Shown in pieces: positions 1,545 through 29,392 of a DNA stretch of 64,000 bases. Position numbers and translations under genes: made by a program. The notes under the pieces are model-generated. The model had not been told where the DNA came from. It searched no databases and saw nothing but the letters and a program-made list of their open reading frames with translations. This DNA comes from Schmidtea polychroa (lineage: Eukaryota), in NCBI GenBank assembly GCA_044892525.1, contig CM097885.1:11224001-11288000 (forward strand). The letters are read 5' to 3'. Each line of letters opens with the position of its first letter. The first letter of the stretch is position 1.

Positions 1545-1572
1545 TAATAATAATATTAATAATATTAATAAT

Positions 1573-1630
<58 letters not shown>

Positions 1631-1662
1631 TTAATAATAATAATAATAATATTAATAATAAC
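1545..1662. repeat. (AAT)n microsatellite
   Basis: Directly visible. Confidence 0.95.
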
Positions 1663-1720
1663 ACAACAACAAAGGAAAGGATACATTTATTAAACATCAA
1701 ATTTATTAAACATTTTTTCT

Positions 1721-2108
1721 TTAAACATCAAATTTTTTGTACAATAACCAAGCTAAACAATGTTGACCGCATGTTTGGGTCAAAGGATTTTGAAACATAG
1801 TTTTATTATACACAATAGGTTTTCCCATTGTTTGTAGTTTTGATATCAACAAAGCCGGGTAATAGAAACCCATAGGATCGAACACGAATATATTACCAGG
1901 TTTCACATATATAGCTATCCAATGTTCTCCACCAAGATGAGACGATTGAGTATTGACGATTATTGCTTGATTATTGCTCAAATATGGAATTTTATCAAGA
2001 GGAAAAACTCCAACAAATTCATTTCCCAATATCTGTTTTCCGATTTTATTGACCTGAACAGAACTATTTAAATAAATCCAGAGTATAAAAAAAAACAACT
2101 TACTCCAT
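1721..2108 (-). CDS. Adenain-like (C5) cysteine maturation protease; exons 2104-2108 and 1721-2063
   Basis: Catalytic His/Asp/Cys motifs GEHW, FDPMG and Q...TCGQHC. ATG GA|GTAAGT...TAG|T TCT (40-nt intron 2064-2103) gives MDSVQVNK. Confidence 0.88.
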
Positions 2109-2135
2109 GATAACTTTTTATGTTTCAATATACAT

Positions 2136-3356
2136 TTATACCAACACAGTTCTATTTGCAGTAATTTGAACTTCATTTTCAAATACTCCATATATTATAA
2201 CATGTACTGGTTCAGTAACAGCTTTTGCAAACTTTATATCCAGTCGTAAATTTCCATTTTGAGGTAATTGACTTTGATTTAAATCAAAATCAGGGGCTAA
2301 AACAAATGTAAAAAATGGGTATTTGCTTTTAAAATCTTCTAGAGTTATTCCGCAATTCAAATTTTTATCTAAATAACCCAGATTTCTAACAATACTCTGC
2401 ATATATGTCGCGCAGTAATTGTCATTCTCGAAATCTTGAATATATGTTTCTCTATAATCAGTATTTTTCGACAAAGTCAATGATGTAACACCAAAGTTTT
2501 TGAAAATTGAGCTGGACGCAGTATATGATCCATTATATTGTGCTTCACTTTGAAATGTTATCAGAATAAAATTAGGCATTCTTCTGTCACCAAATATTTG
2601 TTCTTTATAGAAAAATGAAGCACCTTTAGCAATAGCAAATTGTACAATTTCCTTTGTTTTTAAGGGATAAACTGCATGTTTTGAATTAAGACCCAATTGA
2701 TGACTAGCTAATACAGAGGGGTCTACTCGAACTCTTCTCACCAATAATTTTGCATCAACTAATTGACATATTGGTGCAGTAGTTGCACTAGTAAGAGATA
2801 ATGCAGAATCAGACCTTTTCAATCTAATATGTACATTAACTCCCGGTAGTAAATATTTCGGTTGATCCATAAAATCAAGTTGTAATGATGAGCACATGGT
2901 GAAAACCTTTGAGCCTTTTACCCACTTTTTTCTTTCATCATCACTGCCATAACCCATAGGAGTAAGACATGTATTTTTAGTATCGGAATTGTAATTTAAA
3001 ATAGTTTCTATTAATGCCTTGTGAATGAATGTATTATTTCCGCCCTCAATCTTGATATTATTAAATCCCAACACTGCATCTTTAAAAAGAGTATGAAACA
3101 GGAAATTGTTCGGTATTACATCTGCATTGGCATCCAAAACTTTTCTATCTTTATCTACAACCTTAATCTGAACAGTCAATAAAGTATCGTTCAAATCTAA
3201 ATATTCGGTTTGTGAACCATTAATATAAAACTCGATATCATTTCTACTATCTGTAATTGAATTCATAGGAAAAACTTCCTCAAATGCCCCAAATTCTATT
3301 ACAGCCTGGGGCGACGGTCTATCAAATATACATAATTCAGATTTACCACAAATCAT
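2136..3356 (-). CDS. Polinton major capsid protein (double jelly-roll, hexon-like), intact ORF
   Basis: 406 aa with KSELCIF, YLDLNDTLL, QPKYLLPGVNVHIRLKR and GNLRLDIKF motifs typical of Polinton MCP; adjacent to the protease. Confidence 0.9.
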   Translation of the reverse strand: MICGKSELCIFDRPSPQAVIEFGAFEEVFPMNSITDSRNDIEFYINGSQTEYLDLNDTLLTVQIKVVDKDRKVLDANADVIPNNFLFHTLFKDAVLGFNNIKIEGGNNTFIHKALIETILNYNSDTKNTCLTPMGYGSDDERKKWVKGSKVFTMCSSLQLDFMDQPKYLLPGVNVHIRLKRSDSALSLTSATTAPICQLVDAKLLVRRVRVDPSVLASHQLGLNSKHAVYPLKTKEIVQFAIAKGASFFYKEQIFGDRRMPNFILITFQSEAQYNGSYTASSSIFKNFGVTSLTLSKNTDYRETYIQDFENDNYCATYMQSIVRNLGYLDKNLNCGITLEDFKSKYPFFTFVLAPDFDLNQSQLPQNGNLRLDIKFAKAVTEPVHVIIYGVFENEVQITANRTVLV

Positions 3357-3724
3357 TTTGCAAATATAGTTCCATGTCCTTTCATTCGTTTGTTTATACG
3401 TGATATTCCATGTCTTTTACGTTTTGGAGCATGAGCTGGAGCTGGAGCTGGAGCTGGTTTTTGAAACATACCTGCAACCCCGGGTAAAACTTTCCCTAAT
3501 TCTGCTAAAGCTTTTGTTTTTAGAAATGGTAATATTTTCTGTTCATTCATAATAACATCTTTTGCAGTTTTCATACCAAAACTACCGATACGTTTAAGAA
3601 TAGGCAATGCAAATCTACCTATTGTTCTCAACCATCCTGATCCGTACTGTTTACCAATAAAATATGGTAAATCACCACCAGATTGGCTACCACTATACAT
3701 ACTAATAATATCAGAATTAGCCAT
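3353..3724 (-). CDS. Basic virion core or membrane-active precursor protein
   Basis: 123 aa with QSGG, QYGSG and MKGHG glycine motifs, an amphipathic helix WLRTIGRFALPILKRIG and a basic tail. Lies between mCP and MCP with start/stop overlaps; conserved in copy 2. Confidence 0.7.
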   Translation of the reverse strand: MANSDIISMYSGSQSGGDLPYFIGKQYGSGWLRTIGRFALPILKRIGSFGMKTAKDVIMNEQKILPFLKTKALAELGKVLPGVAGMFQKPAPAPAPAHAPKRKRHGISRINKRMKGHGTIFAK

Positions 3725-4750
3725 TTATTTTACGAAAATGTAATGTCAAATGAGTTTTTGAACCTTTTGGAAATTCGATTAATTGACCAGAATCATCTCT
3801 TATATTTATTTCTATATTGTTTATACAAGATGTTGAAACAGGTAAATACATGGGATTTTCTACATTGATTTGTACAACTTCATCTTGATCATGTTTTTCA
3901 ATCCATATAGATTTCATTAAAGGAACACTAGAATCACCAACAATAACTGGTTCCACGATATTACTGTAAATGAACATTTGCTGATGATTTTCGGTTTGTT
4001 TGTTCCTTCACAAATTTGTTCATTTTGTGTACATACTGGTTTAGTCAATCCTAATGTTTTTGTCAAATTTGAGTCAAATTTAACTTGACTAAGATTAGAA
4101 TTTATACTAAATCTAAATACTTTATCTTTTTGAAGCTCAAAAACTGTTAAAATCTCGCTACAATTGTCACCTAAATAAGTTTGTAATTGTTCGAGGTCTG
4201 TAATATATAAATTATCTTTAAAAGTATATGCATGCTCTGTTATTTCAAAGTATGATAGCTTAAATTTGAATTCAACTAAATTATTAGTTTTCGGAAGTGT
4301 AGAGAGATTTATTTTGACTGTATCATTAAATACATTACGTAAATCGGTAAATCCAAGACGTTTAGCATCAGCCACTGTAGAAAATATAATTTCGAATGGC
4401 TTATTCAAGCAATTCATGTATAAATATTGACCATCATCATAAATTATAGGTTTCCTTGATTTCGATGAACTCGTCAAGTTATAATTATCTTTATCAATAA
4501 GAACACTAATATATTCCGTTACTGCTACTTTCTTATTATATTCAAAAACAGACTTGCTATAGATTGGGAATAAATTGTATACAAATGTAAAATCCAACAG
4601 AGCAACTTCCCAGTCATTATCCAAATAGATAGGGTTTTGGAGTTCGATGATGAATTTGCTTGCTTGATTTTCTGGATGAATTAATGGACAACTATTGCTC
4701 GGCAAAATAGTATAAAAATTCACTTTACTATGTCTTTTGCTGATATCCAT
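3717..4750 (-). pseudogene. Minor capsid protein (penton-like), frameshifted near 3988
   Basis: N-terminal FYTILPSNS...WEVAL and C-terminal IVGDSSVPL...NIEINIRDDSG...LTLHFRK motifs are split over two ORFs. Small deletion relative to the intact copy 2 gene. Confidence 0.85.
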
Positions 4751-5352
4751 GACGGGTTTTGATAACCATGCCATTTGACATAGTATTGTTTATCCTTACC
4801 GACCTTTTTAGTTTTCAATATTTTTTGAATTCTAAATACTTTTGGATGTGGAATGACTTGTAATTCCTGCTCATAAAATTTCCCCTGTACAATATTATTA
4901 TCATTGTCTTTGATGACATACATTACAGGATTCTGTTTAGTATTTATTTTTGAAATTACAAAGACTTCATCACTCCAATTTGTATCAAAATTTTTAATAA
5001 ATGGTGATGCACTAATTTTACTAATTCTAACATGATCACCGACTTTATATTTAGGTTTTGTAATTTTTACAGATTTCTTAGAAGTCAATGATGTTTTTGA
5101 TGTAATATCAACCGGTCTCAATCCATTCAGTCCTCGATGTGATGAATGATTATAACTTGTTATTATTTTCGGTAAAGCATTTACCCATTTTTTATTACCT
5201 TGATGCACGAACAATTTCTTTAATCGATCTCTCAATGTTCGATTAAATCTTTCAACATGGGCAGCTTTGTATTGAGAATGTACCGAGTAGTGATTTATTT
5301 TCAGTTTATCGAGGATTTGCTTAACTTTGCTATTGTAGAATTCTTTACCTAA

Positions 5353-5434
<82 letters not shown>

Positions 5435-5850
5435 TTAATAATAATAATAATAATAATAATACCTAAATCTGTTTGCAAGTTATTAGGATGTCCATCTTTA
5501 AATAAAATATTAATTGCCTTGGACATTTCTTCTGCAGATTTTGCCTTGACCGGTATTGCTCGTGCAAACCTGCTGTATACATTAATACATGTTAAAATAT
5601 ATTTATTCCCATTGTTAATTTTCGAATATGGTATCATCTCCATCAAATCCATTTGCCATAAATCGTCAATACCAAATGTTTTATACGCTCTTGTTGGAAA
5701 TCTTTTCCGCATTGGTTTGTTCAAACTGTACGCAAGCTGATCTGATAACCACTTCTGGGTTTCTTTTTTCGAATTCGGAACTCTTTTGTTTAATTTTGCC
5801 ACTCCACCGAAACCGGCTTCGTCTTCTGGGTTCGTCCAAATCTTCTCCAT
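4720..5850 (-). CDS. Polinton retroviral-like DDE integrase with C-terminal chromodomain; intron 5349-5462
   Basis: WQMDL (D), QTDLG|KEFYN (D, restored by splicing), VERFNRTL (E), and chromodomain FRIQKIL...YYVKWHGY...SWI. Confidence 0.92.
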
Positions 5851-5908
5851 TACAACAAGAAGATTTAAAATTAAATTTAATGTCGGGCAATGAAGGAATA
5901 GCACCCAT
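5681..5908 (-). CDS. Small predicted N-myristoylated protein overlapping the integrase 5' end in another frame
   Basis: MGAIPS fits MGxxxS, followed by SSCC and RRRSR. ATG lies 3 nt after the upstream stop. Open at the same length in copy 2. Confidence 0.5.
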   Translation of the reverse strand: MGAIPSLPDIKFNFKSSCCNGEDLDEPRRRSRFRWSGKIKQKSSEFEKRNPEVVIRSACVQFEQTNAEKISNKSV

Positions 5909-5911
5909 TGT

Positions 5912-6445
5912 TTATGATTGATTTCCTACAACTCCACCTAATATTGATAATGCCAGAGGTATCAGGGCACCAATAAATCCACCTTGTTGTTTATATATAA
6001 TTTTCCTCATTTGCTTACGATTTTTATTATTTACTAAAGATAATAAAGGTTTCCTATGTTTGCTCAATAAATGCTTTTTTGATTTACTGATTTTAATTTT
6101 GCCTTTGACTACTTTAAGTATAATATTGAGTAAATCATCGACAACAAAATTTGGGAATGATTGCAATATATTCATTCTTTTCATACTCGGAGCCTTTAAC
6201 AATGCATTAAAAAATGGAAAACTGCGATGATTTTTAACTACTTTTTTACCGGTTTTACAGGTTTTACGGGTTTTACGTTTAGGTTTAGGATTTTTCGAAA
6301 TAAGATTCATTGCAGAGAAATTTTCAGTTACAAGTTTTTTAGATGGTGTATAACTAGTTGTTGGTGGAACTTTTGGAACTTTAATAGTCTTTCTAATACC
6401 TTTTCTTAATTTCCTAATATGTTTCACCCTTGCTTTTAGAAACAT
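5912..6445 (-). CDS. Lys/Arg-rich core protein precursor with adenovirus pX-like hydrophobic C-terminus
   Basis: Highly basic 177 aa ending QQGGFIGALIPLALSILGGVVG, resembling the GG-cleaved hydrophobic tail of adenoviral pX. Conserved in copy 2. Confidence 0.7.
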   Translation of the reverse strand: MFLKARVKHIRKLRKGIRKTIKVPKVPPTTSYTPSKKLVTENFSAMNLISKNPKPKRKTRKTCKTGKKVVKNHRSFPFFNALLKAPSMKRMNILQSFPNFVVDDLLNIILKVVKGKIKISKSKKHLLSKHRKPLLSLVNNKNRKQMRKIIYKQQGGFIGALIPLALSILGGVVGNQS

Positions 6446-6463
6446 TATTATTCATAGAGGTTT

Positions 6464-7090
6464 TCAACTTTGTTTATAAACCATGGCACCTTTTGGGTTG
6501 AAAATATCTGTTTTTACACGTAAATCATCTGGACATTGTTTTGTGAAATCAAGAAATATATATCCATGAGGTATTTTTGTAGCATCTTGAAATGCACTGA
6601 TAAGAAAATTACGATTGTTAGGGTATGCTTGACGTGCAAGAAAATCAATCACTGTTGCATCTCTAGGATTCTTGAAAATAACTAAATACTGTACATTTAA
6701 ATTACGTGTTCGATGTGCCCCACCTTGATGAAATAGATTTTGTGTTATGAAAATAACTGTTACACCGACATGTCTGCTGATCTTTGTAAATAAATTATTA
6801 AAATCTTTTTCTTTATTAGCTTCTTGATACAAATCATCGATAATAATGACATCACCCTTCTTTAATCGGCTGGACCAGTTTTTATCAAATCCCTTTACTA
6901 TTTTCATGTTTTTTAATTTACAGAAACTTGATTGAGTTAATCCATGTTCTTCATCAGCACCCCTATGCCAATAAATCCTGTTGAATTTTGATTTGAATAA
7001 ATTTGATTTTAGTAATTTACAAACAAATAATGTTTTTCCACTACCACTCGGACCAACGATTTGGTATACTGCATCATTTCTTAATTCCAT
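6464..7090 (-). CDS. A32/FtsK-HerA family genome packaging ATPase
   Basis: Walker A GPSGSGKT, Walker B IIIDD, plus SRH and ITQN motifs. Confidence 0.92.
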   Translation of the reverse strand: MELRNDAVYQIVGPSGSGKTLFVCKLLKSNLFKSKFNRIYWHRGADEEHGLTQSSFCKLKNMKIVKGFDKNWSSRLKKGDVIIIDDLYQEANKEKDFNNLFTKISRHVGVTVIFITQNLFHQGGAHRTRNLNVQYLVIFKNPRDATVIDFLARQAYPNNRNFLISAFQDATKIPHGYIFLDFTKQCPDDLRVKTDIFNPKGAMVYKQS

Positions 7091-7189
7091 TTCAAAAATT
7101 TTATATATGTATATTTGTTTATATTCGATGATTTAATGAACTCGTGCTCAATTTGTATATAAAGACTAATTTTCATAAATGATTTAATA
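7091..7189. promoter_or_regulatory. Divergent promoter between the ATPase (virion gene block) and the TBP-like gene
   Basis: ~100-bp head-to-head spacer with TATATAAA at 7156-7163 (+) and TATAAA near 7118-7123 (-). Conserved in copy 2. Confidence 0.55.
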
Positions 7190-7627
7190 ATGTTAGCAAA
7201 TATAAATTATCGAGGAAATTTTGATGTATCGAATATGAGGTTCCCACCAGGGAAACCCCAGCAAATTATCGATAGAAGCGGGAAATATCCGATAATATTT
7301 TTCAAGACTGGTAAATGCAGAATCATGGGATGTAAGAAACCTTTGGATATTAATAAATTACAATATCGAATAAATAATATTAAAATCCAATCAATTACCG
7401 TTACTATGGATATGGGACATAGTATCAATCTTTATAACATGTCGAAAAAATGTGATTGTATGTTTGAACCGGAATTGTTTCCGGCACTAAGACTATTAAA
7501 ATATAACCCTATATGTGTCAACGTGTTTGCTAGTGGAAAGGTTGTCATGCTGGGGTTGAGAAATTTGGACTATAGAGAATTTGTTGACAATGTTCGAAAT
7601 GAGATAATTTCATTGGTCGATTTCTAA
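7190..7627 (+). CDS. Virus-encoded minimal TATA-box-binding protein (TBP)-like protein
   Basis: Two TBP repeats: LANIN...IIFFKTGKCRIMG and KIQSITVTMD...FEPELFPAL...VNVFASGKVVMLG (compare TBP YEPELFPGL...LIFVSGKVVLTG). Confidence 0.85.
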   Translation: MLANINYRGNFDVSNMRFPPGKPQQIIDRSGKYPIIFFKTGKCRIMGCKKPLDINKLQYRINNIKIQSITVTMDMGHSINLYNMSKKCDCMFEPELFPALRLLKYNPICVNVFASGKVVMLGLRNLDYREFVDNVRNEIISLVDF

Positions 7628-7701
7628 TTGGTAAATTTCTAATTGGTTATTGATTGATTTAAACAAACGGTTTTTTGTTTAGAATTCATTTTTTCAACAC
7701 C

Positions 7702-7825
7702 ATGTACAAATTACCAAGCTCTGCAACTCTCATGAAAGATATCGACGATTCCGGTAAATTTAAAATTTTTATTTTCACATTATTTACTATTTATTATTTT
7801 AGAAAAATATTTAGAAGTTATGATA
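7702..7825 (+). pseudogene. 5' remnant of the intron-containing accessory gene that is intact at 27649-28065
   Basis: MYKLPSSATLMKDIDD, then a GTAAAT...TTTAG intron; truncated by a ~2-kb deletion relative to copy 2. Confidence 0.7.
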
Positions 7826-7958
7826 AATTGAGGACGTCCTCATAATCAATGTGATTACCTTCTATAATCTTTTCGGTCCGATCGACCAGGAAAATTAGGC
7901 TTTCCATAATATTCTTGTTGATGAGTTCTCTTAACATATTTTCCATTAAATTAGACAT
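7826..7958 (-). pseudogene. 5' remnant of Bcl-2-like gene
   Basis: MSNLMENMLRELINKNIMESLIFLVDRTEKIIEGNHIDYEDVLN, homologous to 29770-29903. Confidence 0.75.
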
Positions 7959-8063
7959 TTTTACAATATTTTAAAATATGATGTTTTATTTATACCAATA
8001 CTGTATGATTTTGATTGGTTGATAGACTATAAATGTAAAAGAAAGGTTTTGATTTGATACACC
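7959..8063. promoter_or_regulatory. Bidirectional CCAAT/TATA promoter shared by the Bcl-2-like and glycoprotein genes
   Basis: TATAAATAAA on the minus strand, central GATTGG (CCAAT) and TATAAAT on the plus strand. Same layout at 29904-30007. Confidence 0.55.
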
Positions 8064-8564
8064 ATGAAAACTCTATTCATATTGCTAATTATTATAACGA
8101 GTGTGTGCTCACACAATACAACAATAACAGTGGAGTCTTTTAATAAATCAATATGTGTTTGTCCGAATACAGCCAAGTTGATGGATATTTTATATATTCT
8201 CGATAAACCAAAATGGTCAAAGCATCCAGGAAAAAGAATATCTCAAAGATTGGAGAATTTAGAAAACAGTTATGAACTAACATTTGAATATATACAAAAT
8301 ATAAAAATTAAATTGATTGATCATATTGAGGTTTTCAATAACTCTATTACTGAAAATAAAAAGAATATGAAGATTATTGATAAGAAGCATGATTATTTGT
8401 TAAAAAAGATTGAATTATTATTAAGAGAAATTCAAACAATCAAAGGATCAATAGAATATCTGAAAATCAATTCAACGTTACCAATTTCTAACAATATTGC
8501 TGCGAATAGTAGTACATCAATATTTAGTTTACCTTTGTTAATTTTACATTATTTTATTGTTTAA
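8064..8564 (+). CDS. Secreted or GPI-anchored coiled-coil glycoprotein (viral accessory)
   Basis: Signal peptide MKTLFILLIIITSVCS, several N-x-S/T sequons, heptad-like middle, and small residues (ANSSTS) before a terminal hydrophobic tail. AATAAA follows the stop. Confidence 0.7.
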   Translation: MKTLFILLIIITSVCSHNTTITVESFNKSICVCPNTAKLMDILYILDKPKWSKHPGKRISQRLENLENSYELTFEYIQNIKIKLIDHIEVFNNSITENKKNMKIIDKKHDYLLKKIELLLREIQTIKGSIEYLKINSTLPISNNIAANSSTSIFSLPLLILHYFIV

Positions 8565-8589
8565 ATAAATGTATGTTTTGTTGATTTCT

Positions 8590-14283: not shown

Positions 14284-14317
14284 ATTATTGTTGTTGTTAT
14301 TGTCATTGTTGTTGTTG

Positions 14318-14414
<97 letters not shown>
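14284..14414. repeat. (TTG)n/(TTA)n microsatellite
   Basis: Directly visible. Confidence 0.95.
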
Positions 14415-14415
<1 letters not shown>

Positions 14416-14577: not shown

Positions 14578-16569
14578 ATGCTGCTACCAAGCAATCATCA
14601 TTTTATACTATTATTATTATTATTATTATTATTTCGATCAACTTATGTTGATTGTTTTAATTTAAAAAAAAAGATATTTACTTTTGCACTAAGTGCATTC
14701 AATTAAAAATTTTATTTATTTAGTATTTTTGCACTAAGTGCATGATATTTATATTCAAATCAAAAAATGTTTATTCTGTGCAATAAGTGCATTATAGAAA
14801 AATTTAATTTGAAAAAATAAATGCAAAAAAAATAATAATTAAATGATTCCATAGACTTAGATTAATATTGAATATATTGAAAAAAATCCTTCAATTAAAT
14901 AACCTGTGCAATTTTCTACTGAGAGTGATGCAGAACATGTCACATATATAAAAAGTCAGAATTATTAATTAAAAAGAAAAAGAATTAAATAAATAATAGA
15001 CAAGCATATTAACAACATATTAATAATCCTCCACCTTTTTTTATTTGTGTCTTTTGAACTGTTTTCACATGTAATCTTACAGTTATCGATTAATGTTTGA
15101 ATTGAATATGTTTTGGAATTTATCAATTACTAATTGAATTATTAGGAATACTTATTGAAAAACACTTCTACGGATTAACTGTTTTAGATCAATAACAAAC
15201 AAAAATACATTAAAGATGCTGGATAACGGGATAATTCCAAAAATAGTAACAATTAAAATCTGCACTTTCAAAAACAGACATTCTATTGACAGAACAGAGT
15301 GTATTGACATTCGAAATAGAGTGTCAACAGGGATTGTTAATTTTATATTATATAATTTGTAATTGTGATAATCAAATATATTTTATTGAACCAGTGTTTG
15401 TGTTCTTATTTATATAGGAACCATCAAGTTGAGATTTGAGAACCTCAACATAAGATTTTCAGCTATAACGATATAGCTAATAATTATGAAGGTAATAAAC
15501 TAAAACCTGAGTACAGAAGTTGAGTGATAATATTTATTTTACACAAAGATTTGCATCTAGAGGCATGTATATTAGCTTTTTCTAAAACTGATTTCATAAG
15601 TATTTTTGTCAATTATTACTTTTCCGATAAATATCTGACTATAGATTAAAACTTTGTTGAATTGATGAAAGATTAAGATATTGTACCTTTGAATGCCTTG
15701 ACTAAGTTTCCATATCTCCATCAAGTTATTACAACCGTTGGAGACTTAATAAAAGCCTTTTAGTGCATAATTTCGTTCTCTTGGAAGCATTTGATTATGT
15801 CATATTGATCAATTCATTTTTTTAATATTTTTTATTAAAAATATTTATTTTATTTTTATTTTTTTACTATATTTTTTTAATTATTTATAATATATTTTTA
15901 TTGTTTATAAATATTTTAATTATTATTTATACAATTATTCTAATTTTTATATTTTATTTGCTGAAACGGCCACCAGATTAAATTACGCTAAATATCTGGC
16001 TTGCGATCAAATGCGTGTTGCTTTGATGGATGATAAAGTTATTGAACCTAGAAGATTTAATAAAAGCATTCCAGTTTAATTTTTTCGTTCCCTTGACACC
16101 ATTTAACCATCTGGCTCTGCTAACCTTTTCCCATTATCATGTGGCGATTATGAGAAGCAGTTATCATACATCCAACTGTTTTATACATCGACCTTATTGC
16201 ACCTAGAAAGGTCATTTGAACAGTAAATCCATTTAAATATTTTGAATTAATTCTCTAGCATCCGGTTTTATAAGGCAATAAATTGCACGAATCATAAATT
16301 TATTATTTCTTTTGTTTATTATTCAGATATTTTCAAAAAATAACTTTTTTCAAAATGCCTTATTTAAAATTGGCAACAATAAAATTATTCAAAACAAAAA
16401 TATTTAAAATCTCTCGACATTTATAAAAATTTTGACAATTAAATTAAACTATTTCACGCTTTGGCATTTTTATCCCTAATTAATTAATTTTATAATAAAT
16501 CAAATTTATTATTTCAATGATACAATAAATATATTATTCTAATTGGCAATTTTAGATAGAGAAATGTAA

Positions 16570-16619
<50 letters not shown>

Positions 16620-17234
16620 TCTTTATTACCTTTTGTATTAATTGTCATCAGCATTTTTATAATTTTATATTTATTGTTTTTCAATTTATTATCATTCCGA
16701 GTTTTTATTAATTTATTATTTTTATTGTGATGTTTTTGTAATTATTATTTTTAGTTTCAATTATATTTTGTGGCTTGCCTACCAGCGAAAAAGAATAGAA
16801 ATGGCTCACAAATCCTTACAAAGCAAGCAAATTTCTCAATAATTCCAACTAACATGAAATGCATGCTTCTAATTAATAAAAATCAAATATAAATGAAAAA
16901 ATGATTAATTTAGCAACTGAAAATCATTGGAATATAGCACACTGATAGAGCTACCAATTTGTCCAATGAAATTAAATGGCCTTGAAAACAACTAATGAAA
17001 AACGAGTTCGCTTTATTGACAGGCGAATTAGCGTTTAGATTGACCACCAATCTTGCTGTGGTCTTGTGGAACTGATTAAACATTCATGTCGAATATAAAT
17101 GCAAATGAATATTAACTATTAAGAATTCAGATAATAATTTATAACATGTATATTTAATAAATATAATTAATTCACAAACTAAGCTTATCTCGAATTTAAA
17201 CAAATTAATATTAGTTTTTAAATTTAAATAATTA

Positions 17235-17739
17235 AAAAGAACTCACTAATTGAATGGCTAACATCAATACTGTTTTTAACGAGATTTGCCTATAACAATG
17301 AATAAACAAATCTTCCAAAGACGGACCCAGTAATTCTAAAACTAACGCATTGTATCGATCGCATTGTCCAAAGTAAAAATCTTCTGGAAAGCCTGTTATC
17401 GGATTACCTAAACTGTTAAAAATATTAATCACAACCATAATATAATAAATGAAATAGTTGAGCATTCTATAAAATCTGTATTCTAAATGTAATTAGGGTG
17501 CTCTGGTTTTCATGAATTCTGACTTTAGAGCAACATGTTCGTTTGTATATCAATTCCTCCCGGAAACATTATGAAAATAAAAAACATTTGTAATTGATAA
17601 TATTACCTAATCGAAGTTCATCAAAATTTCCACAAAACTATCAAAAAATTCGAATCTCCACCGCTCAGAACATTAGAAGATTTCGAATAACGATTTTAAT
17701 CTGCTAAGCACTATATTTGAATATTTTATTAAAACTAAC
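17235..17739 (-). pseudogene. CSNK1G: Casein kinase I gamma (gilgamesh-like) 5' pseudogene fragment with introns
   Basis: [22 protein letters not shown] and [17 protein letters not shown]...[11 protein letters not shown] motifs. In-frame stop and deletions; no downstream exons seen. Confidence 0.85.
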
Positions 17740-18039
17740 CTGAAAAAATAGTGAATTTAAACAAACAGCTTAATAAAAAATGCTGACTTATAATAATTAA
17801 AAATTTATTAAAATTGTTTATATCCCATGAAAATTTTAATATATGTTCAAAGTTTTGAAATTTAATTCGTATTTTTTATTGGACAATAAAAGTAGTTTAA
17901 TTTATATTTAATTTTTGTGTATGTAAAATTGGTTTTCAACTATTTAAAGATAAAAGATTTAAAAACACTTAGTGTTTGGTAAAAACTGTAGAAATTAAAA
18001 TATTTTTGAATACGATAGTAATGCATTTTCAGAAACCAG

Positions 18040-18989
18040 CATGACAATCACATTGATAAATTAAATAAATACAAAACCCATTGGCAGTAAACGGGAAACG
18101 TTGACATATTTTTCATTAAGATTTTTAAGCTGTTGAAACTATTCGAAAACAGACTGGTGAGCGTTGGAATTTATGCACGCAACCCTGCTGTAAAGGCATA
18201 TGTTTCTGATAAGAATTGTCGGGAAATAATTGCCTTTGCCTAAAAGCACATTGGCTGGACTACACAGCAATGGTCTGATGAACCAAAGTTCAACCTTTTT
18301 GTTTCCGATGGTCGATGTAAAGTTTGGCGCCCCAAACGAGAAAAGGACAATCCTCTATATTCCAGGGTAAGAATACCTCATTGATGGAGATTTTAACAGG
18401 ACAACGATCCGAAGCATTCCTCAAAGTCCTACAAGAGTGGTTCGTGAAGAAAAGGTCAATGTTCTGAAATGGCTGTCACAATCTTTGGACCTTAATCCAA
18501 TTCGAACATCTTTGGGATGAGATTGGATGAGACGCCTTGAAGGTCAACATTTCTCGAACTCGAATCAGTTGTATGAGAAACTTTAGGAAATTTGGTCTGA
18601 GATTCTTGTTAGCATATGTGAGCGCCTTGTGAACTCGAACCCACGCTGTTGTCAGGCAGTCTTGGATGCTGGTGGATACCCTACAAAATATTAATCATTA
18701 TCTATGTGTAAACTCTTTCACTCAGTATTTATTCTGTATTTATTCAGTACAAAAGAAAATAAAAAAGTGTTTCCATATTGATTTGATTCAAAATTGAGAA
18801 TTTTTTTCAAACAAATTACGATAAGAGTGTTAAAATTCCCTCTCATTGTTTCACTGATTGTACCTTCAGAAAGCCCACCTAAATTTTACCAAGAAGCACT
18901 AACGGGAAAATTCATGGCATTTACAGAATAAAATGATGAAAGATGAAACAAATTTCTATCTCATATTTCTATACTTTTTCTGCTCACTG
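18040..18989 (+). mobile_element. Tc1/mariner (Tc1-like DDE) remnant
   Basis: WSDEPKFNLFVSDGR, QDNDPKH, SQSLDLNPI..HLW and GGYPTKY* fragments. Right TIR ...CTGCTCACTG followed by TA. Confidence 0.88.
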
Positions 18990-19229
18990 TATATATGATA
19001 AATATAGAAATTATGAAGGTAATAAAGAAAAAGCTTAATGCGGAAGTTGAAGGATAATATTTATTTTACACAAAGATCTGCATATAGTGACATGTAGCTA
19101 TCTTATTAATTCATCTCAATCAACTACGAAAAACGCTTGTGATCATAGTAATAATGATCGAAGTAGAGTTATGTTGCTAGATAGTGATATAAGTATTGTT
19201 AGTCAACCTCCTTTTACGATTGTTAGCTT

Positions 19230-19472
19230 GAACGACATAACTCTTGTCCAACCAACTCATTTGCAAACTAACCTCAAAGAAACTATTGATTCTTAGTGAA
19301 GAAAGAATTAAGCAATTGGATATTAAAATCAGAGTTCACAGTGGTGGAAAGAACTCACAAATTTATGCAATCAGTCAAGCATTGGTAAAATCTGTTGTTG
19401 CATCCTAGCAAAAATTTGTTGATGAACAATCTAAAAGAGAGTTGAAAGAAAGCTTCATTCGATATGATGGAA
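19230..19472 (+). pseudogene. RPS16: 40S ribosomal protein S16 (uS9) pseudogene fragment
   Basis: LDIKIRVHSGGKNSQIYAISQALVKSVVAS*QKFVDEQSKRELK...YD matches RPS16; contains a stop and a frameshift. Confidence 0.88.
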
Positions 19473-20448
19473 GTGAAATTCCTTGGATATCTAATTATGA
19501 TAACAGCGGTATTTTTGATCAAAGTTTTGGCAGTTGAGATGGCCGTGAAGTCAAAACACACCCATAGCTCTATTTGGATCATCGCAGGTGAAGTGACACG
19601 ATTAGGGTGAGATATCGTCGCGAGATTAATGGAACTTTATCTATCGCAAGAAAATGAGTGCGAAAATTCCGGATAGTGTCGATTTATTGTCCACAATATA
19701 GATAATTGAATGGATAGAATGACTTACACCTAAATCCGAATTATAAAAGTCTCTACACCAAACACCACTGAGATTCATTCTCTATAGTGGTGGTTGGCGT
19801 GTAGAGCAATTGCTCACTCACCAATTTAATGAATTTCCTATCATATTTTGGAAATTTATTTTTGCCATTTTACAAATGGTTTTCAGGTAAGATGTTAAAT
19901 TTTAAGACTTGAATTTTGATCCATATAGATATGAGAGTTCTTAAATACTACTTTTAATCAACAGTATAAGTATAAAATATTTTTAATTAATTTTCAAGGT
20001 TTTTTAGGAATTTTATGATATTTATCTTTAAGTATTTTAGAATTATTTCGAAAAAATGTGAGTGAGATATATTTTTAATTATAATTAAATAAATCAATCA
20101 CCAAAAATATGTATTTTTCTAAATAATTTTTGTTTTTTTTCTGAGCTCAATATGAGATGCTTCTTTCAGGAAACCATCTGGATTGAAAAGACATTGAACC
20201 AGATTCATCTGCTCTTGATAATTTGATTAAAAATATATTTTTAAAAAGTTTCAGCGATCTTTTTTCTTTCTAAAAATTGTCAAAAATCAAGTTATAATAG
20301 AAACTTATCTCAGCGGTGCATTTCTACGAATCAAATGTTTATGTGTTTTTAGTGTGTGTTACGCTTGTGTGTAGTTTTTAATTTTTCTTCCAGTTTTCAG
20401 ATTTCTATAGTATAAAATGTATCTTACTGCACTATAAATGAGAACATC

Positions 20449-22302
20449 AGTAGGTAGTTAGTAAAATTGTTGCAACTTTTGATTACGCAATTGTTGCAAC
20501 TCAAATTTTTTGCGTTCAGGGATTTTTAGTCCAAAATTTTTTTTATCACACTATAGTGAGGGGGTCTCGATTGATCCTGAGATTTTCAATACAAAAAAAT
20601 TTTTTCAATAGAAATTTGAATTATCATTAAAAAGCCAAGGATTTTTCGAATTAAATTAAGGTGGGTCTCCTTGGTCATGAGAATTTCAATAGAAAAAGGT
20701 GGTCTACAATAAAAAAGCCAAGGATTATTCAGACTGTAGTGAGAGGGTCTCCATGGTCCTAGAATTTACAATCGAAAAAGACGGTCTTCAATAAAAAAGC
20801 ATGGTAATTTAAGGTCTCAGGATATTTTCAATACAAAAAGGTGGTCTACACTAAAAAACAGTGGTAATTTAAGGTCTCAGGATATTTTCAATACAAAAAT
20901 CCGATTATCACTAAAATAGCATGGATTTTTCTAGGTCAATTCAGGTGGGTCTTCTTGGTCCTGAGAATTTCAATAGAAAAAGGTGGTCTACACTATAAAA
21001 CTTGGTAAATTTTTTAAAATAAAGCAAATTATGGGTCTAAAAAATTGATTTACAGTAAATTATGGTCCAAATTTTTAAATTAAAGTAAATAATAGGTCTA
21101 ATAATTGAATTAAAGCAAACAATAGGCTGAAATAAGTAAATTAAGGTCCAAATTTTTGAATTACATTAAATAATAGGTCTAATAATTGAATTAAAGTAAA
21201 TAATGGTTCAAAATTTAAAATTAAAGTTAATTAAGGGTTCAACTAAGTAAATTAAGGTTCAAATTTTAAATTAAAGTAAATCAAGGTCCAAATTTTTAGA
21301 ATTAAAGTAATCAATGGGTTCAAATTTTTATATTAAAGTAAATAATGGTTCAAAATTTAAAATTAAAGTTAATTAAGGGTTCAACTAAGTAAATTAAAGT
21401 CCAAATTTTTAAATTAAAGTAAATAATGGTTCAAATTTTTAATTAAAGTAAATCAAGGTCCAAAATTTTAAATTAAAGTAATGAATTGGCTCAAATAACT
21501 AAATTAAGGTTCTAAAAAATTAAATTAAAGTTAATTAAGGTCCAAATTTTAAAATTAAGTAATCAATGGTAAAAAAATTTTAAATTAAAGTTAAATAAGT
21601 AAATTAAAGTAATAATTTTTAAATAAGTAAATTAAAGTTATGTAATAAGTAAATTAAAGTAATATTTTTAAATTTATTAACAAAAAGTTGAAATAATAGA
21701 AGATGTTTGAGAATTGAAATTTTTTAATGAAAATTTTTTATGAATAATTTTTTAAGTTAATTTTTAATGGAAATTTTTATGAAATATTTTTTAATGATAA
21801 TTTTAGATGGAAATTTTTATGAAATATTTTTCAAAGACAAATTTTAATAATAATTCAACAACAAACCAACAACTTAGTACCAACAACCAGTAACTTACGA
21901 ACATGTATTAACAACCACATACCTACAACTAGTTACTAACAATCAGTTACCTGATACCAAGTACTAACAACCAACTAGCTACCACCTACCAAGTACATAC
22001 AACCAACAACAACCAAGTACTAAGCATTATTAACTAACTACTAAGTACTTACAACCAAAAACAACCAGCTTACAACTAGCTACCACCTACCAAGTACTCA
22101 CAACCATTAACTTACGAACATGTATTAACAACCAAATACCTACAACTAGTTACTAACAACCAGTTACCTGATACCAAGTACCAACAACCACCTACCAAGT
22201 ACTAACAACCAAAAACAACCAGGTACTAAGCATTATCGACCAACTAAATACTAAGTACTAACAACCAAAAACAAGAAAAAACTAGGTACCAGATACCAAC
22301 TA
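20449..22302 (+). repeat. Left arm: AGTAG terminus, then ~60-bp GGTCT repeat, AAATTAAAGT-type repeat and CAACCAAGTACTAA-type repeat blocks
   Basis: Three distinct tandem-repeat blocks, truncated at 22302 where they join the protease intron. Confidence 0.8.
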
Positions 22303-22347
22303 AAAAACAACTTACTCCATGACAACTTTTTGTGTTTCTGTATACAT

Positions 22348-23563
22348 TTATACCAACACTGTTCTATTTGCAGTAATTTGAACTTCATTTTCAAATACTC
22401 CGTATATTATAACATGTACTGGTTCAGTAATAACTTTTGCAAACTTTATATCCAGTCGTAAATTTCCATTTTGAGGTAATTGACTTTGATTTAAATCAAA
22501 ATCAGGGGCTAAAACAAATGTAAAAAATGGGTATTTGCTTTTAAAATCTTCTAGAGTTATTCCGCAATTCAAAATTTTATCTAAATAACCCAGATTTCTA
22601 ACAATACTCTGCATATATGTCGCACAGTAATTGTCATTCTCGAAATCTTGAATATATGTTTCTCTATAATCAGTATTTTTCGACAAAGTCAATGATGTAA
22701 CACCAAAGTTTTTGAAAATTGAGCTGGACGCAGTATATGATCCATTATATTGTGCTTCACTTTGAAATGTTATCAGAATAAAATTAGGCATTCTTCTGTC
22801 ACCAAATATTTGTTCTTTATAGAATGATGAAGCACCTTTAGCAATAGCAAATTGTACAATTTCCTTTGTTTTTAATGGATAAATTGCATGTTTTGAATTA
22901 AGACCCAATTGATGACCTGCTAATACTGAGGGGTCTAGTCGTACTCTTCTCACCAATAATTTTGCATCAACTAATTGACATATTGGTGTAGTAGTTCCAC
23001 TAGTAAGAGATAATGCAGAATCAGACCTTTTCAGTCTAATATGTACATTAACTCCCGGTAGTAAATATTTCGGTTGATCCATAAAATCGAGTTGTAATGA
23101 TGAGCACATGGTGAAAACCTTTGAGCCTTTTACCCACTTTTTTCTTTCATCATCACTACCATAACCCATAGGTGTAAGACATGTATTTTTAGTATCAGAA
23201 TTGTAATTTAAAATAGTTTCTATTAATGCCTTGTGAATGAATGTATTATTTCCGCCGTCAATCTTGATATTATTAAATCCCAACACTGCATCTTTAAAAA
23301 GAGTATGAAACAGGAAATTGTTCGGTATTACATCTGCATTGGCATCCAAAACTTTTCTATCTTTATCTACAACCTTAATCTGAACAGTCAATAAAGTATC
23401 GTTCAAATCTAAATATTTGCGAACCATTAATATAAAACTCGATATCATTTCTACTATCGGTAATTGAATTCATAGGAAAAACTTCCTCAAATGCCCCAAA
23501 TTTTATTACAGCCTAGGGCGACGGTCTATCAAATATACATAATTCAGATTTACCACAAATTAT
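22348..23563 (-). pseudogene. Major capsid protein, copy 2 (start codon lost, frameshift near 23418)
   Basis: Highly similar to 2136-3356. ATG changed to ATA and a 5-nt deletion upstream of YLDLND. Confidence 0.88.
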
Positions 23564-23928
23564 TTTGCAAATATAGTTCCATGTCCTTTCATTCGTTTGT
23601 TTATACGTGATATTCCATGTCTTTTACGTTTTGGAGCTGGAGCTGGAGCTGGAGATTTTTCTTTTTGAAACATACCTGCAACCCCGGGTAAAACTTTCCC
23701 TAATTCAGCTAAAGCATTTGTTTTTAGAGATGGTAATATTTTCTGTTCATTCATAATAACGTCTTTTGCAGTTTTCATACCAAAACTACCAATACGTTTA
23801 AGAATAGGCAATGCAAATCTACCAATTGTTCTCAACCATCCCGATCCGTACTGTTTACCAATAAAATATGGTAATTCACCGCCAGATTGGCTACCACTAT
23901 ACATACTAATAATATCAGAATTAGCCAT
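23560..23928 (-). CDS. Basic core or membrane-active precursor protein, copy 2
   Basis: Near-identical to 3353-3724. Confidence 0.7.
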   Translation of the reverse strand: MANSDIISMYSGSQSGGELPYFIGKQYGSGWLRTIGRFALPILKRIGSFGMKTAKDVIMNEQKILPSLKTNALAELGKVLPGVAGMFQKEKSPAPAPAPKRKRHGISRINKRMKGHGTIFAK

Positions 23929-24964
23929 TTATTTTACGAAAATGTAATGTCAAATGAGTTTTTGAACCTTTTGGAAAGTTTATAAGTTTTCCACTATCAT
24001 CACGAATATTTATTTCTATATTGTTTATACATGAACTTGCTATTGATAAATACATGGGATTATCGATATTTATATTGACAACTTCATCATGTTCATATTT
24101 TCCAATCCATACCGATTTCAAAAGAGGAACACTGGAATCACCAACAATTATGGGTTCGATAATGTTAGTATATATGAACATTTGTTGATGATGTTCTAGT
24201 ATTCTTGGTTTGCGTATACCAGTCGAGTTTTCTCGATATTTTTGCTTATCTAATCCAAGTGAATTTGCCAAATTTTTATCAAATGTAACTTCGCAAATAT
24301 CCTCATTTAAACTGAAGGTAAAAATCAAATCTTTCACAATTTCCAAATTTTTAAATATGTGTGAACAATTGAACTTTAAATATTTAAGTAAATCATCAAG
24401 TTTATCAAAATATAATTCATCAGCAAAGGTAAATGATTCTTCAACTTCATCATTATACGACACAGATATTTTGATTTCTTCTTTCACTATACTGTTTGCT
24501 TCAAATAGATTAAAACGTAATAAATACTCGGTCTCCGTAACAATATTTTTCAACTTATTGCAACCCATTCGTTTGGCATCTTCAATAGTTTCGAATGTTA
24601 TTGTAAATGGTTTAAAATCACAACTGATATTTATTCCATCCTTGTAAAACATATAGCAATGCGAATCTAATATTTGATTCGGAATATGATATGTTTTATC
24701 ATAATTACTGATAACAAAGATACCGCTACATGTTTTCACAATATTCCTTTTGAAATCAATCTTACATTGACTATAAAATGGGAATGTGTTGTACACGAAT
24801 GTAAAATCTTGCAGTGCAACTTCCCAGTCACCATTTAAAGAAATCGGATTCTGGAGATTGACCATAAATTTACTGGCTTGATTGTCTGGATGAATTAATG
24901 GGCAACTATTGCTCGGTAAAATAGTATAAAAATTCACTTTACTAGGTCTTTTGCTGATATCCAT
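23921..24964 (-). CDS. Minor capsid protein (penton-like), intact, with divergent central domain
   Basis: Continuous ORF with FYTILPSNS...WEVAL and IVGDS...RDDSG...LHFRK motifs. Start placed at MDISK. Confidence 0.88.
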   Translation of the reverse strand: MDISKRPSKVNFYTILPSNSCPLIHPDNQASKFMVNLQNPISLNGDWEVALQDFTFVYNTFPFYSQCKIDFKRNIVKTCSGIFVISNYDKTYHIPNQILDSHCYMFYKDGINISCDFKPFTITFETIEDAKRMGCNKLKNIVTETEYLLRFNLFEANSIVKEEIKISVSYNDEVEESFTFADELYFDKLDDLLKYLKFNCSHIFKNLEIVKDLIFTFSLNEDICEVTFDKNLANSLGLDKQKYRENSTGIRKPRILEHHQQMFIYTNIIEPIIVGDSSVPLLKSVWIGKYEHDEVVNINIDNPMYLSIASSCINNIEINIRDDSGKLINFPKGSKTHLTLHFRKING

Positions 24965-25802
24965 GACGGGTTTTGATAACCATACCATTTTACATAGTAT
25001 TGTTTATCCTTACCGACCTTTTTAGTTTTCAATATTTTTTGAATTCTAAATACTTTTGGGGGAGGAATGACTTGTAATTCCTGCTCATAAAATTTCCCTT
25101 GTACAATATTATTATCATTGTCTTTGATGACATACATTACAGGATTCTGTTTAGTATTTATTTTTGAAATTACAAAGACTTCATCACTCCAATTTGTATC
25201 AAAATTTTTAATAAATGGTGATGCACTAATTTTACTAATTCTAACATGGTCACCGACTTTATATTTAGGTTTTGCAATTTTTACAGATTTCTTAGAAGTC
25301 AATGATGTTTTTGATGTAATATCAACCGGTCTCAATCCATTCAGTCCTCGATGTGATGAATGATTATAACTTGTTATTATTTTCGGTAAAGCATTTACCC
25401 ATTTTTTATTACCTTGATGCACGAACAATTTCTTTAATCTATCTCTCAATGTACGATTAAATCTTTCAACATGGGCAGCTTTGTATTGAGAATGTACCGA
25501 GTAGTGATTTATTTTGCAAACCTGCTGTATACATTAATACATGTTAAAATATATTTATTCCCATTGTTAATTTTCGAATAAGGTATCATCTCCATCAAAT
25601 CCATTTGCCATAAATCGTCAATACCAAATGTTTTATACGCTCTTGTTGGAAATCTTTTCCGCATTGGTTTGTTCAAACTGTACGCAAGCTGATCTGATAA
25701 CCACTTCTGGGTTTCTTTTTTCGAATTCGGAACTCTTTTCTTTAATTTTGCCACTCCACCGAAACCGGCATCGTCTTCTGGGTTCGTCCAAATCTTCTCC
25801 AT
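24934..25802 (-). pseudogene. Integrase, copy 2, with a ~262-nt deletion removing the intron and second catalytic Asp
   Basis: Junction at ~25515 joins copy-1 positions 5301 and 5564. Confidence 0.88.
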
Positions 25803-25860
25803 TACAACAAGAAGATTTAAAATTAAATTTAATGTCGGGCAATGAAGGATTAGCACCCAT
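25633..25860 (-). CDS. Small predicted N-myristoylated overlapping ORF, copy 2
   Basis: MGANPS...SSCC...RRR, same length as in copy 1. Confidence 0.5.
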   Translation of the reverse strand: MGANPSLPDIKFNFKSSCCNGEDLDEPRRRCRFRWSGKIKEKSSEFEKRNPEVVIRSACVQFEQTNAEKISNKSV

Positions 25861-25863
25861 TGT

Positions 25864-26388: not shown

Positions 26389-26406
26389 TATTATTCATAG
26401 AGGTTT

Positions 26407-27033: not shown

Positions 27034-27136
27034 TTCAAAAATTTTATAAATATATGTGTATTTATTTATATTCGATGATTTAATGAACTCGTGCTCAATT
27101 TGTATATAAAGACTAATTTTCATAAATGATTTAATA

Positions 27137-27574: not shown

Positions 27575-27648
27575 TTGGTTAATTTTTAATTGGTTATTGT
27601 TTGATTTAAACAAACGGTTTTTTGTTTAGGATTCATTTATTCAACAAC

Positions 27649-28065: not shown

Positions 28066-28270
28066 ATGTATTTTTGTTTTTATTGTGATTTTATATTTGA
28101 AATAATAATATATAATAATAGTAATAATAATAATAATATAAATAGAAATAGTAATAATAGAAATAATAATAATAGAAATAGAAATAATATAAATAGTAAT
28201 AATAAAACATTAATAATAAAACATTAATAATAATAATATTTCACATTAATAGAACATAAATGCAGCAATA

Positions 28271-28873: not shown

Positions 28874-28922
28874 CAAAGAAAATCTATAAACAAACTTATA
28901 ATATAGTTTTAAAGTGATAAAA

Positions 28923-29322: not shown

Positions 29323-29392
29323 TAAATTTTAGTTAATTAGTGTTTGTAAATTTATTTAAAATTTTATTTAAAAATCAAACAAAATAACTATA

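Follow-up and report, generated by a model that had tools for sequence, protein, structure and literature searches.

A reduced TATA-binding protein of a Maverick/Polinton lineage and its probable part in the control of virion genes

In the passages of PMC4893493, PMC12529657 and PMC4922670 that treat beta- and gamma-herpesvirus mimics of the TATA-binding protein (TBP), ORF24 of KSHV (Kaposi's sarcoma-associated herpesvirus), BcRF1 of Epstein-Barr virus (EBV) and UL87 of human cytomegalovirus (HCMV) are placed in the viral late-gene pre-initiation complex. TBP genes are also mentioned in a passage of PMC10675990 on mirusvirus-like elements. Starrett et al. (2021, Virus Evol 7:veaa055; preprint 10.1101/697771), in a figure legend (Fig. 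5), label one gene of a MELD virus with an adintovirus-like DNA polymerase B (PolB) as 'TBP', glossed as 'similar to TATA binding proteins'. The gene analyzed here lies at positions 7190–7627 (forward strand) of a 64,000-nucleotide (nt) stretch of Schmidtea polychroa DNA (GenBank assembly GCA_044892525.1, contig CM097885.1, positions 11,224,001 to 11,288,000; hereafter the window). It encodes a protein of 145 amino acids (aa), called mini-TBP below, on a virus-like mobile element. With somewhat better than even confidence, the best explanation is a minimal viral TBP of one Maverick/Polinton lineage that serves late-type virion promoters; judged from sequence comparisons, mini-TBP probably switches on the capsid genes through the element's own promoter signal.

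The likeness to the herpesvirus mimics would be one of mechanism and not of family: a TBP-fold protein, late structural genes marked by a variant TATA element (TATT in herpesviruses) and the host RNA polymerase II. Here too, two promoter classes were found, and the variant box stands before virion genes. The mimics are large, multi-domain proteins that are barely recognizable as TBPs and depend on five further viral partners, whereas mini-TBP is small, is plainly homologous to TBP, has no viral partners in evidence and probably stands outside that family; its matches to herpesvirus U58 and ORF75 in the BFVD were weak (E 4e-3 to 6e-3). TBP-like proteins of the Nucleocytoviricota and of ascoviruses have the virus-encoded TBP fold in common with mini-TBP and gave 28 BFVD matches at E ≤ 1e-3, including Heterosigma akashiwo virus, mimivirids, marseilleviruses, an asfarvirus B263R homologue and ascoviruses. 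They differ from it in length (186–608 aa), are 7–20% identical to it, and serve viruses with RNA polymerases of their own or very large genomes; none of the 28 matches came from a Polinton-type virus. To our knowledge, Mavericks/Polintons and adintoviruses have no RNA polymerase.

The gene labeled by Starrett et al., as far as the legend describes it, is likewise a TBP-like gene on a mid-size linear double-stranded DNA virus of the Polinton/adintovirus kind; it differs in that the legend gives a label, without an analysis of architecture, distribution, selection or promoters in the accompanying text. This label was the sole precedent in the literature found on a TBP of Polintons, Mavericks or adintoviruses, and supplements may name such genes. 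In a 2026 framework preprint on Polinton-like viruses, a term search found TBP, TATA and promoters nowhere in the text. Among the papers listed on Polinton promoter motifs, which treat virophages, giant-virus-dependent Polinton-like viruses or giant viruses themselves, promoter codes were described only for the first two, and none for Mavericks, Polintons or adintoviruses; among the papers listed for Maverick, Polinton or adintovirus, TATAAACA was not found. The kind of protein is known, and in this setting it had been noted only as a label; the architecture, synteny, selection and promoter code described below are new.

Two copies of the gene are present on the forward strand of the window: copy A, with the coordinates given above, and copy B at 27137–27574. 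They scored 57 and 56 bits, respectively, with the Pfam TBP profile (PF00352, curated cut-off 22.9 bits; E about 2e-15). Both were found to be intact, intronless 145-aa open reading frames (ORFs), as the initial annotation had described them. Its head-to-head arrangement with the virion genes was also recovered, since a spacer of 99 bp separates the start of copy A from that of the opposite-strand gene for an A32/FtsK-type genome-packaging ATPase (6464–7090; Pox_A32 30.4 bits, cut-off 22.8). The reading frame is beyond chance, because the Pfam match has an E of 1.8e-15 and all 150 genome matches that were scored, out of 4182 first-look candidates, span residues 1–145 at 99–100% identity with zero stops. 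The proteins of copies A and B differ at five residues (S30R, P34S, R44K, K65I and D127E), with five non-synonymous and two synonymous codon changes. Copy B has Lys in place of the family-invariant Arg44 and lacks the YATAAAC box (see below) before its ATPase gene, and from these two features the element copy that carries it looks like a decaying one.

The TBP identity was assessed by profile and structure comparisons. In a sequence search of solved structures (Protein Data Bank, PDB), 35 of the 36 matches at E ≤ 10 were TBPs (best E 5e-11), and a profile of the mini-TBP family matched 35 solved TBPs (best E 1.6e-20). The AlphaFold2 (AF2) model, built on 58 family members, had a predicted local distance difference test score (pLDDT) of 96.2 and a predicted template modeling score (pTM) of 0.84. 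With this model, 44 solved chains were retrieved by Foldseek at E ≤ 1e-3, every one of them a TBP (template modeling score, TM, 0.67–0.78). VIA-align placed 145 of the 145 residues onto residues 66–240 of yeast TBP (Z 13.3, root-mean-square deviation 2.5 Å). The 38 TBP rows lay at Z 11.1–13.3, and the next-best folds, rolling-circle Rep proteins and a DNA glycosylase domain, reached only 6.5 and 5.7. Matches in the ESM Atlas were to TBP clusters only.

Canonical TBPs (yeast 1ytb and the human core 1cdw) have the same full-length fold as the model (Z 13.0–13.3, 143–145 residues aligned). Mini-TBP differs from them in size (145 aa, the core being about 180) and sequence (about 25% identity), in a repeat 1 without helices H1 and H2 and with a remodeled stirrup, in Lys22 for Phe and Arg44 for Val, and in being encoded by a virus-like mobile element. 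In the model, repeat 2 has the complete S1-H1-S2-S3-S4-S5-H2 order, with strands at residues 62–74, 90–92, 99–102, 109–113 and 117–123 and helices at 81–85 and 129–142. DSSP assigned to repeat 1 the strands 2–10, 25–28, 35–38 and 42–48, corresponding to S1 and S3–S5; S2 was not called, the S2-S3 stirrup has the form of a loop that encloses the invariant Pro23, and there is no helix of at least four residues, so neither H1 nor H2. As modeled, mini-TBP retains the whole ten-strand DNA saddle, with contributions from both repeats. It is, on the same model, a reduced variant of the PF00352 family and not a canonical member, since the topology of repeat 1 is incomplete.

The first reading of the sequence had pointed to the strings FEPELFPAL and VFASGKV in repeat 2 and to a shortened repeat 1 that seemed to lack one Phe. 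Both strings were found, aligned to YEPELFPGL and IFVSGKI of solved TBPs, and the missing Phe was located: an hhalign comparison of the two repeats (probability 88%, E 3e-6) pairs Lys22, not a Phe, with F97, beside the pairs F38-F113, P23-P98 and Arg44-Val119. Three of the four intercalating Phe positions (F38, F97 and F113) are kept and Lys22 occupies the fourth; the canonical Phe pairs are F99, F116, F190 and F207 in yeast TBP. Across 58 family sequences, E93, E95, F97, F113, F38 and R44 are invariant and P94 is nearly so. Repeat 1 bears family-invariant changes on its DNA-facing strand, where Arg44 stands at the site of a DNA-facing Val of canonical TBP, and the EPELFP motif of the C-terminal stirrup (E93, P94, E95) is kept. 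In TBP-TFIIB-DNA structures, the EPEL stirrup of the C-terminal repeat is the TFIIB contact, and the equivalents of E93 and E95 point away from the DNA in canonical TBP. On DNA, the C-terminal repeat of TBP covers the 5' half of the box and the N-terminal repeat the 3' half; TFIIA, NC2, Mot1 and TAF1 engage the latter repeat on its upper face. A phmmer register of residues 17–62, with 'DRSGKY' placed on 'ASGKMV', was rejected, as it conflicts with the model strands and with hhalign.

The family of mini-TBP comprised 109 relatives of 96–232 aa, all with PF00352. Most of them are 144–165 aa long and open with the same conserved first strand (NINY[KR]G), and from these lengths the short form is taken to be a family trait and not a local truncation. 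When 1.84 billion cluster representatives were searched exhaustively, 757 matched at E ≤ 1e-3 and 112 at the stricter E ≤ 1e-10. The majority of the best 150 cluster matches were single-stretch, full-length proteins of 100–230 aa, and at least 100 clusters consisted of such 144–165-aa proteins.

Host TBPs were compared with this family. The host genome has canonical-type TBP loci with introns on C1 (124 bits per repeat) and three intronless two-repeat TBP paralogues, of 215 aa (TRF-like, L115; G000:C2:182637078-182637596), 166 aa (L117; G000:C2:132285308-132285757) and 212 aa (G000:C1:195751380-195751880). Host TBP and TRF-like frames scored 22–48.5 bits against the mini-TBP family profile (just 48.5 bits for the 215-aa frame), in contrast to 313 bits for a 97%-identical relative. 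In a tree of 54 rows, made by a quick method and unrooted, branches with a support of 99 (Shimodaira-Hasegawa-like approximate likelihood ratio test, SH-aLRT) part the mini-TBP family from canonical TBPs and two host paralogues. Host paralogues of the TRF2/TBPL1 type are, like mini-TBP, divergent PF00352 members with specialized promoter sets; they differ in having two full helical repeats, in lying on the canonical side of the tree and in not being element-borne. The mini-TBP side of the tree includes three further types from the same genome, and five members with inserts or an extra repeat (P0162, P0173, P0205, P0217 and P0229) were placed inside the family. These five are 173–365 aa long; some have long low-complexity inserts within or before repeat 1, and P0205 has an apparent extra C-terminal-type repeat.

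Across ten metagenome pairs (pS 0.055–0.265, the pairs not being independent), the ratio of non-synonymous to synonymous differences (pN/pS) was 0.05–0.50. Some pairs of genome copies showed as many as 11 synonymous differences and zero non-synonymous ones (L018 vs L022), in a sample biased by its choice: copies L001–L030 were picked by protein score, which favors the absence of residue changes, and are not usable as an unbiased dN/dS. On the metagenome comparisons, mini-TBP is under purifying selection, and it is almost certainly a selected, element-borne TBP. Of the three refuting outcomes named in the initial annotation (absence of a TBP fold, dN/dS near 1, and grouping with host TBP as a recent pseudogene), all were examined and none was borne out.

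Synteny was surveyed in 81 loci, namely 80 retained of 173 relatives on metagenome contigs and one relative on a viral contig, many of them only 1–3 kb long. Homologues of the virion-block genes (coordinates below) were found near the TBP gene, with the ATPase in 25 of the 81 loci, the integrase in 15, ORF285 in 12, ORF177 in 11, the capsid protein in 10, the protease in 7 and ORF123 in 6. The association with a Polinton ATPase that the initial annotation proposed to look for elsewhere is present in these relatives. In most of the 81 loci, the TBP gene lies directly upstream of the ATPase gene in the same direction; the two are divergent in L043 and L075, as in the window, and in seven loci the protease gene is upstream of the TBP gene. 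A protein-primed PolB is encoded on the long contigs L098, L087 and L082 (PF03175 at 77–85 bits), and long metagenome contigs also encode a parvovirus-type phospholipase A2 domain and a KilA-N protein. The viral-contig collection contained one distant TBP relative (L031, 26% identity) and zero relatives of the capsid protein. Because the same ATPase, integrase, capsid protein, protease and PolB occur beside TBP on metagenome contigs, mini-TBP is, by gene content, conserved as a gene within one Maverick/Polinton (adintovirus-like) lineage. Among the genes of these elements, it was the sole conserved member of a known transcription-factor family that was found.

In 81 distinct regions upstream of virion-block genes, YATAAAC was sought in the coding orientation up to 120 nt ahead of the start codon. 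The motif was present in 68 of the 81 regions and, on the opposite strand, in one (shuffle mean 3.6, maximum 12). By gene, the counts were 22/23 for the ATPase, 7/7 for ORF123, 10/11 for the capsid protein, 9/11 for ORF285, 11/15 for the integrase, 6/8 for ORF177 and 3/6 for the protease. In loci of at least 4 kb, 146 YATAAAC boxes lay on the gene strand versus 17 on the opposite one. The following base was A in 58 of the 68 regions, and the distance to the ATG was 30–49 nt in 31 of them. YATAAACA differs from TATAWAWR in the 3' half of the box, where its position 7 is a C. The canonical TATAWAW was found at −60 to −25 in 6 of 22 ATPase regions and in zero or one region of each other virion gene.

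In the window, the YATAAAC boxes of copy A are on the reverse strand, at 7117–7123 (TATAAACA, 33 nt before the ATPase start codon), 6472–6478 (33 nt before ORF177), 5910–5916 and 5989–5995 (66 and 145 nt before the integrase ORF), 3819–3825 (101 nt before ORF123) and 3392–3398 (42 nt before the capsid gene). Those of copy B start at 23599, 23978, 24023, 25862, 25941 and 26415. The box is often within the 3' end of the preceding, overlapping ORF, and it is also found in the divergent spacer, ahead of the block's first gene. A reading of YATAAAC as the poly(A) signal of the preceding gene was rejected, since the box often stands 30–45 nt before the preceding stop codon and precedes the first gene of the block. 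In loci L032–L111, the first base of the box was T in 77 of 91 cases where the TBP was at least 42% identical to that of the window and in 47 of 95 with more distant TBPs, and the base after the box was A in 73/91 (near clades) and 54/95 (far clades); these loci are related to one another, and their counts do not amount to independent observations. In L090, a tRNA-Ile gene (anticodon GAT) at 3449–3523 lies between the TBP and ATPase genes, just before the CATAAACA box of the latter.

The TBP gene has a promoter of another class. TATAWAW was found at −50 to −31 in 20 of 40 distinct TBP upstream regions and in 0–2 regions in the other bins (1000 shuffles, mean 2.8, maximum 8). In the window, the canonical TATA box TATATAAAG is at 7156–7164 on the forward strand, 34 nt before the TBP start codon. 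In several of the TBP upstream regions, an initiator-like TCAYT was noticed by eye some 30 nt past the TATA box. A CCAAT-type box, located farther upstream than the TATA box, occurred in 13 of the 40 TBP regions (shuffle mean 5.2, maximum 12) and in 8 of the 81 virion-gene regions (shuffle mean 11.2), and YATAAAC in just one of the 40. Two right-arm genes on the forward strand have the TBP-gene layout, a CCAAT-type box and then a canonical TATA box: ORF166 (8064–8564), with its own TATAAAT box at −36 and the upstream box GATTGGTTGATAG, and ORF163 of copy B (28382–28873), with a TATAAAA box at −41 and the same CCAAT-type box. ORF163 is homologous to the gene that precedes TBP on contig L039. 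Judged by these counts, the elements carry two promoter classes, a canonical TATA box on the TBP gene and a strand-specific YATAAACA, often 33–45 nt before the ATG, on the virion block, and this two-class code is a new result of the present analysis.

An action of mini-TBP in transcription initiation of element genes appears somewhat more probable than not. In the scheme proposed here, the TBP gene and its right-arm neighbors, with their host-type CCAAT and TATA promoters, would be read first by host TFIID. Mini-TBP would then bind the private YATAAACA box on the coding strand upstream of most virion-block genes and recruit host RNA polymerase II to them through TFIIB. The lost helices of repeat 1 would free it from host regulators that grip this face of TBP. 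The scheme of early genes read by the host and late genes read by mini-TBP is drawn from three features: repeat 2 and EPELFP are invariant, the changes are all in repeat 1, and the box deviates in its 3' half. If so, YATAAACA would be a better target for mini-TBP than either TATAAAAG or a box whose C is altered. Specific reading of YATAAACA by mini-TBP is put forward with a little less than even confidence, and the same tentative grade is given to the complete two-stage programme, with host TFIID first and mini-TBP acting next on YATAAACA via TFIIB in evasion of host TBP regulators.

Several observations weigh against this scheme. The TATAAA core of the box is a good host TATA core and is perhaps readable by host TBP unaided. 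With the box 33 nt before the ATG and initiation about 30 nt downstream, the leader would be of a few bases, which is unusual. YATAAAC was absent from 13 of the 81 virion-gene regions, including those of ORF285 and the protease in copy A of the window, and 20 of the 40 TBP upstream regions were without a canonical TATA box. On the protein side, the HMMER family profile aligns only its repeat 2, to both repeats of solved TBPs, and the residue correspondences in repeat 1 come from hhalign (88%) and the model. The virion blocks and boxes of sister elements in the genome are 84–97% identical to those of the window (as measured on the ATPase, integrase and capsid proteins; the integrase of one type reaches 68%), whereas their TBPs are just 54–63% identical. 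As the sister TBPs diverged while the boxes were conserved, any co-adaptation of TBP and box would have to lie in the conserved residues alone.

The divergence of the sister TBPs has a sharp border. The nucleotide identity of L126 to the window is 95% in the integrase, 97% in ORF177 and 92% in the ATPase gene, then 63% in the spacer and 63% in the TBP gene. From this break at the ATPase start codon, TBP and its promoter are read as a right-arm module, or cassette, that recombines independently of the virion module. Compared with the 7091–7627 side of the window, L126, L127 and L128 are 57–68% identical in spacer and TBP, and 82–93% in the ATPase gene (nucleotides). ORF285 occurs in two protein forms, about 47% identical, among copies that are otherwise 92–99% identical (L120, L126–L130), and both forms occur even among copies with the same TBP type (L120); ORF285 may be a host-range or surface protein.

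The explanation that best survives beside a TBP of late-type virion promoters is a general TBP substitute or booster, and it is considered unlikely. Mini-TBP would then bind ordinary TATA boxes, those of the element among them, and raise or protect the element's transcription when host TFIID is limiting or repressed, and the YATAAACA boxes would be read by host TBP or another factor. The near-canonical C-terminal repeat with three of four Phe kept agrees with this, as does the canonical TATAAA core, and the canonical TATA boxes on the TBP gene and its right-arm neighbors would allow positive autoregulation. However, the invariant C, the following A and the strict strand bias call for a reader unlike host TBP, and the family-invariant changes of repeat 1 are at DNA-facing places.

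Less probable is a decoy or shut-off protein, an alternative already raised in the initial annotation, which would occupy host TATA boxes or titrate TFIIB (or Brf-/Rrn7-type factors), support no initiation itself and damp transcription of the host or of rival viruses. A protein that keeps the saddle and the EPELFP stirrup and has lost the repeat 1 helices, a portion of the partner surface, would suit such a role. Host shut-off would, however, be costly for an element with very many germ-line copies, 150 of 150 scored frames being intact, though expression could be restricted; the box before each gene would also be unexplained. A slightly lower probability still is given to an architectural bender of AT-rich DNA at the element ends or origin, aiding protein-primed replication, packaging or integration. 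The packaging ATPase gene adjoins the TBP gene in 25 of the 81 loci, and TBP-fold domains serve other DNA transactions, as in the Rep proteins and the DNA glycosylase domain (Z 6.5 and 5.7). Against this, the invariant E93 and E95, not DNA-facing, are best explained by a TFIIB-like partner, and the conserved box is spread gene by gene on the coding strand and not at the ends. A recently captured or processed host TBP copy, or a decaying functionless passenger, as the short, intronless gene and the five non-synonymous against two synonymous changes between copies A and B might suggest, is refuted by the profile scores, the SH-aLRT split, the wide family with conserved synteny and the pN/pS values, and is given almost no weight.

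A TBP of the lineage that serves its virion promoters would have consequences for several questions. An element-encoded TBP together with a strand-specific box makes a concrete and cheaply testable model of Maverick gene control. If the model is true, a virus of about 15–20 kb would have made a true TBP into a herpesvirus-like late-gene switch, and mini-TBP would be an example from nature of a minimal TBP whose box specificity is altered. Mid-size integrating viruses would then carry a promoter-recognition layer of their own, convergent with herpesvirus late-gene control. A naturally minimized TBP helps to ask which parts of the protein serve bending, TFIIB recruitment and regulation by TFIIA, NC2, Mot1 and TAF1. 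Mini-TBP and YATAAACA boxes also form a sequence signature by which the lineage can be annotated in genomes and metagenomes.

The remaining genes of the virion block of copy A are on the reverse strand. ORF177 (5912–6445) is a conserved virion-block gene without a Pfam match and a candidate minor capsid protein. The putative integrase ORF (4720–5850) has matches to an rve core (25.9 bits, Pfam cut-off 32.6) and to a chromodomain (Chromo, 21 bits, Pfam cut-off 25.1), both of which fall below the cut-off. It is followed by the variable ORF285 (3917–4774), the small conserved ORF123 (3353–3724), the major capsid protein ORF406 (2136–3356) and an adenain-type cysteine protease (1721–2191; Peptidase_C5 26.8 bits, cut-off 21.3). 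ORF406 is a double jelly-roll protein (AF2 pLDDT 76.9), whose model gave VIA-align Z scores of 24.7 with PBCV-1, 20.9 with Sputnik, 20.0 with mavirus and 13.6 with adenovirus hexon. The protease and the A32 ATPase above their cut-offs, the capsid fold and the protein-primed PolB of the relatives are in keeping with the Polinton-type setting that had been assigned to the locus. The best viral match of ORF406 in the BFVD was an uncharacterized protein of Cotesia sesamiae Mombasa bracovirus (E 2e-25, 26% identity), ranked above capsid proteins of MELD viruses, adomaviruses and virophages. The virion block of copy B, from capsid protein to ATPase, is at 22348–27123 on the reverse strand.

In a self-comparison of the window (G+C content 28%), the element copies extended over about 1552–8587 and 22302–30531, the latter with an extra segment at 27768–29771. 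A polymerase gene is absent from both, which is a caveat on the Polinton setting. A remnant of a protein-primed PolB, with the last ~93 residues only, was found by tblastn at 62093–62368 (reverse strand), and a third, partial element copy lies beside it at 62647–64000. Two inverted matches, 7826–8026 with 62567–62368 (87.6%) and 29687–29970 with 62651–62368 (99.3%), are candidate terminal inverted repeats. In other copies in the genome (L118 and L125), TBP has a 5'-truncated PolB piece on its right, and intact PolB frames of 1167–1328 aa occur elsewhere in the genome, one of them in a shared block ~1 kb downstream of the protease gene on the same strand.

Sequencing runs X4 and X5, from a second organism, contained the ATPase-TBP stretch, mostly 90–95% alike, which suggests a related element in a related species. 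One 1105-base contig of run X1 covers the 5' part of the ATPase gene, the spacer and TBP, and is uninformative on transcripts. Near-identical segmental duplications were present in the window (14739–22302 and 49500–57070, 99.7%; 39689–43794 and 45394–49501, 99.5%). They lie around the 3' portion of a host Nup192/205 gene with several exons (matched over 33636–41908), take in some of that portion, and represent either an assembly artefact or a recent duplication. One simple repeat of trinucleotide type recurs at 1485–1661, 5350–5461, 14284–14415, 28101–28238, 30636–30823 and 62647–62778, that is, at the left edge of element copies, within the integrase ORF and elsewhere in the window.

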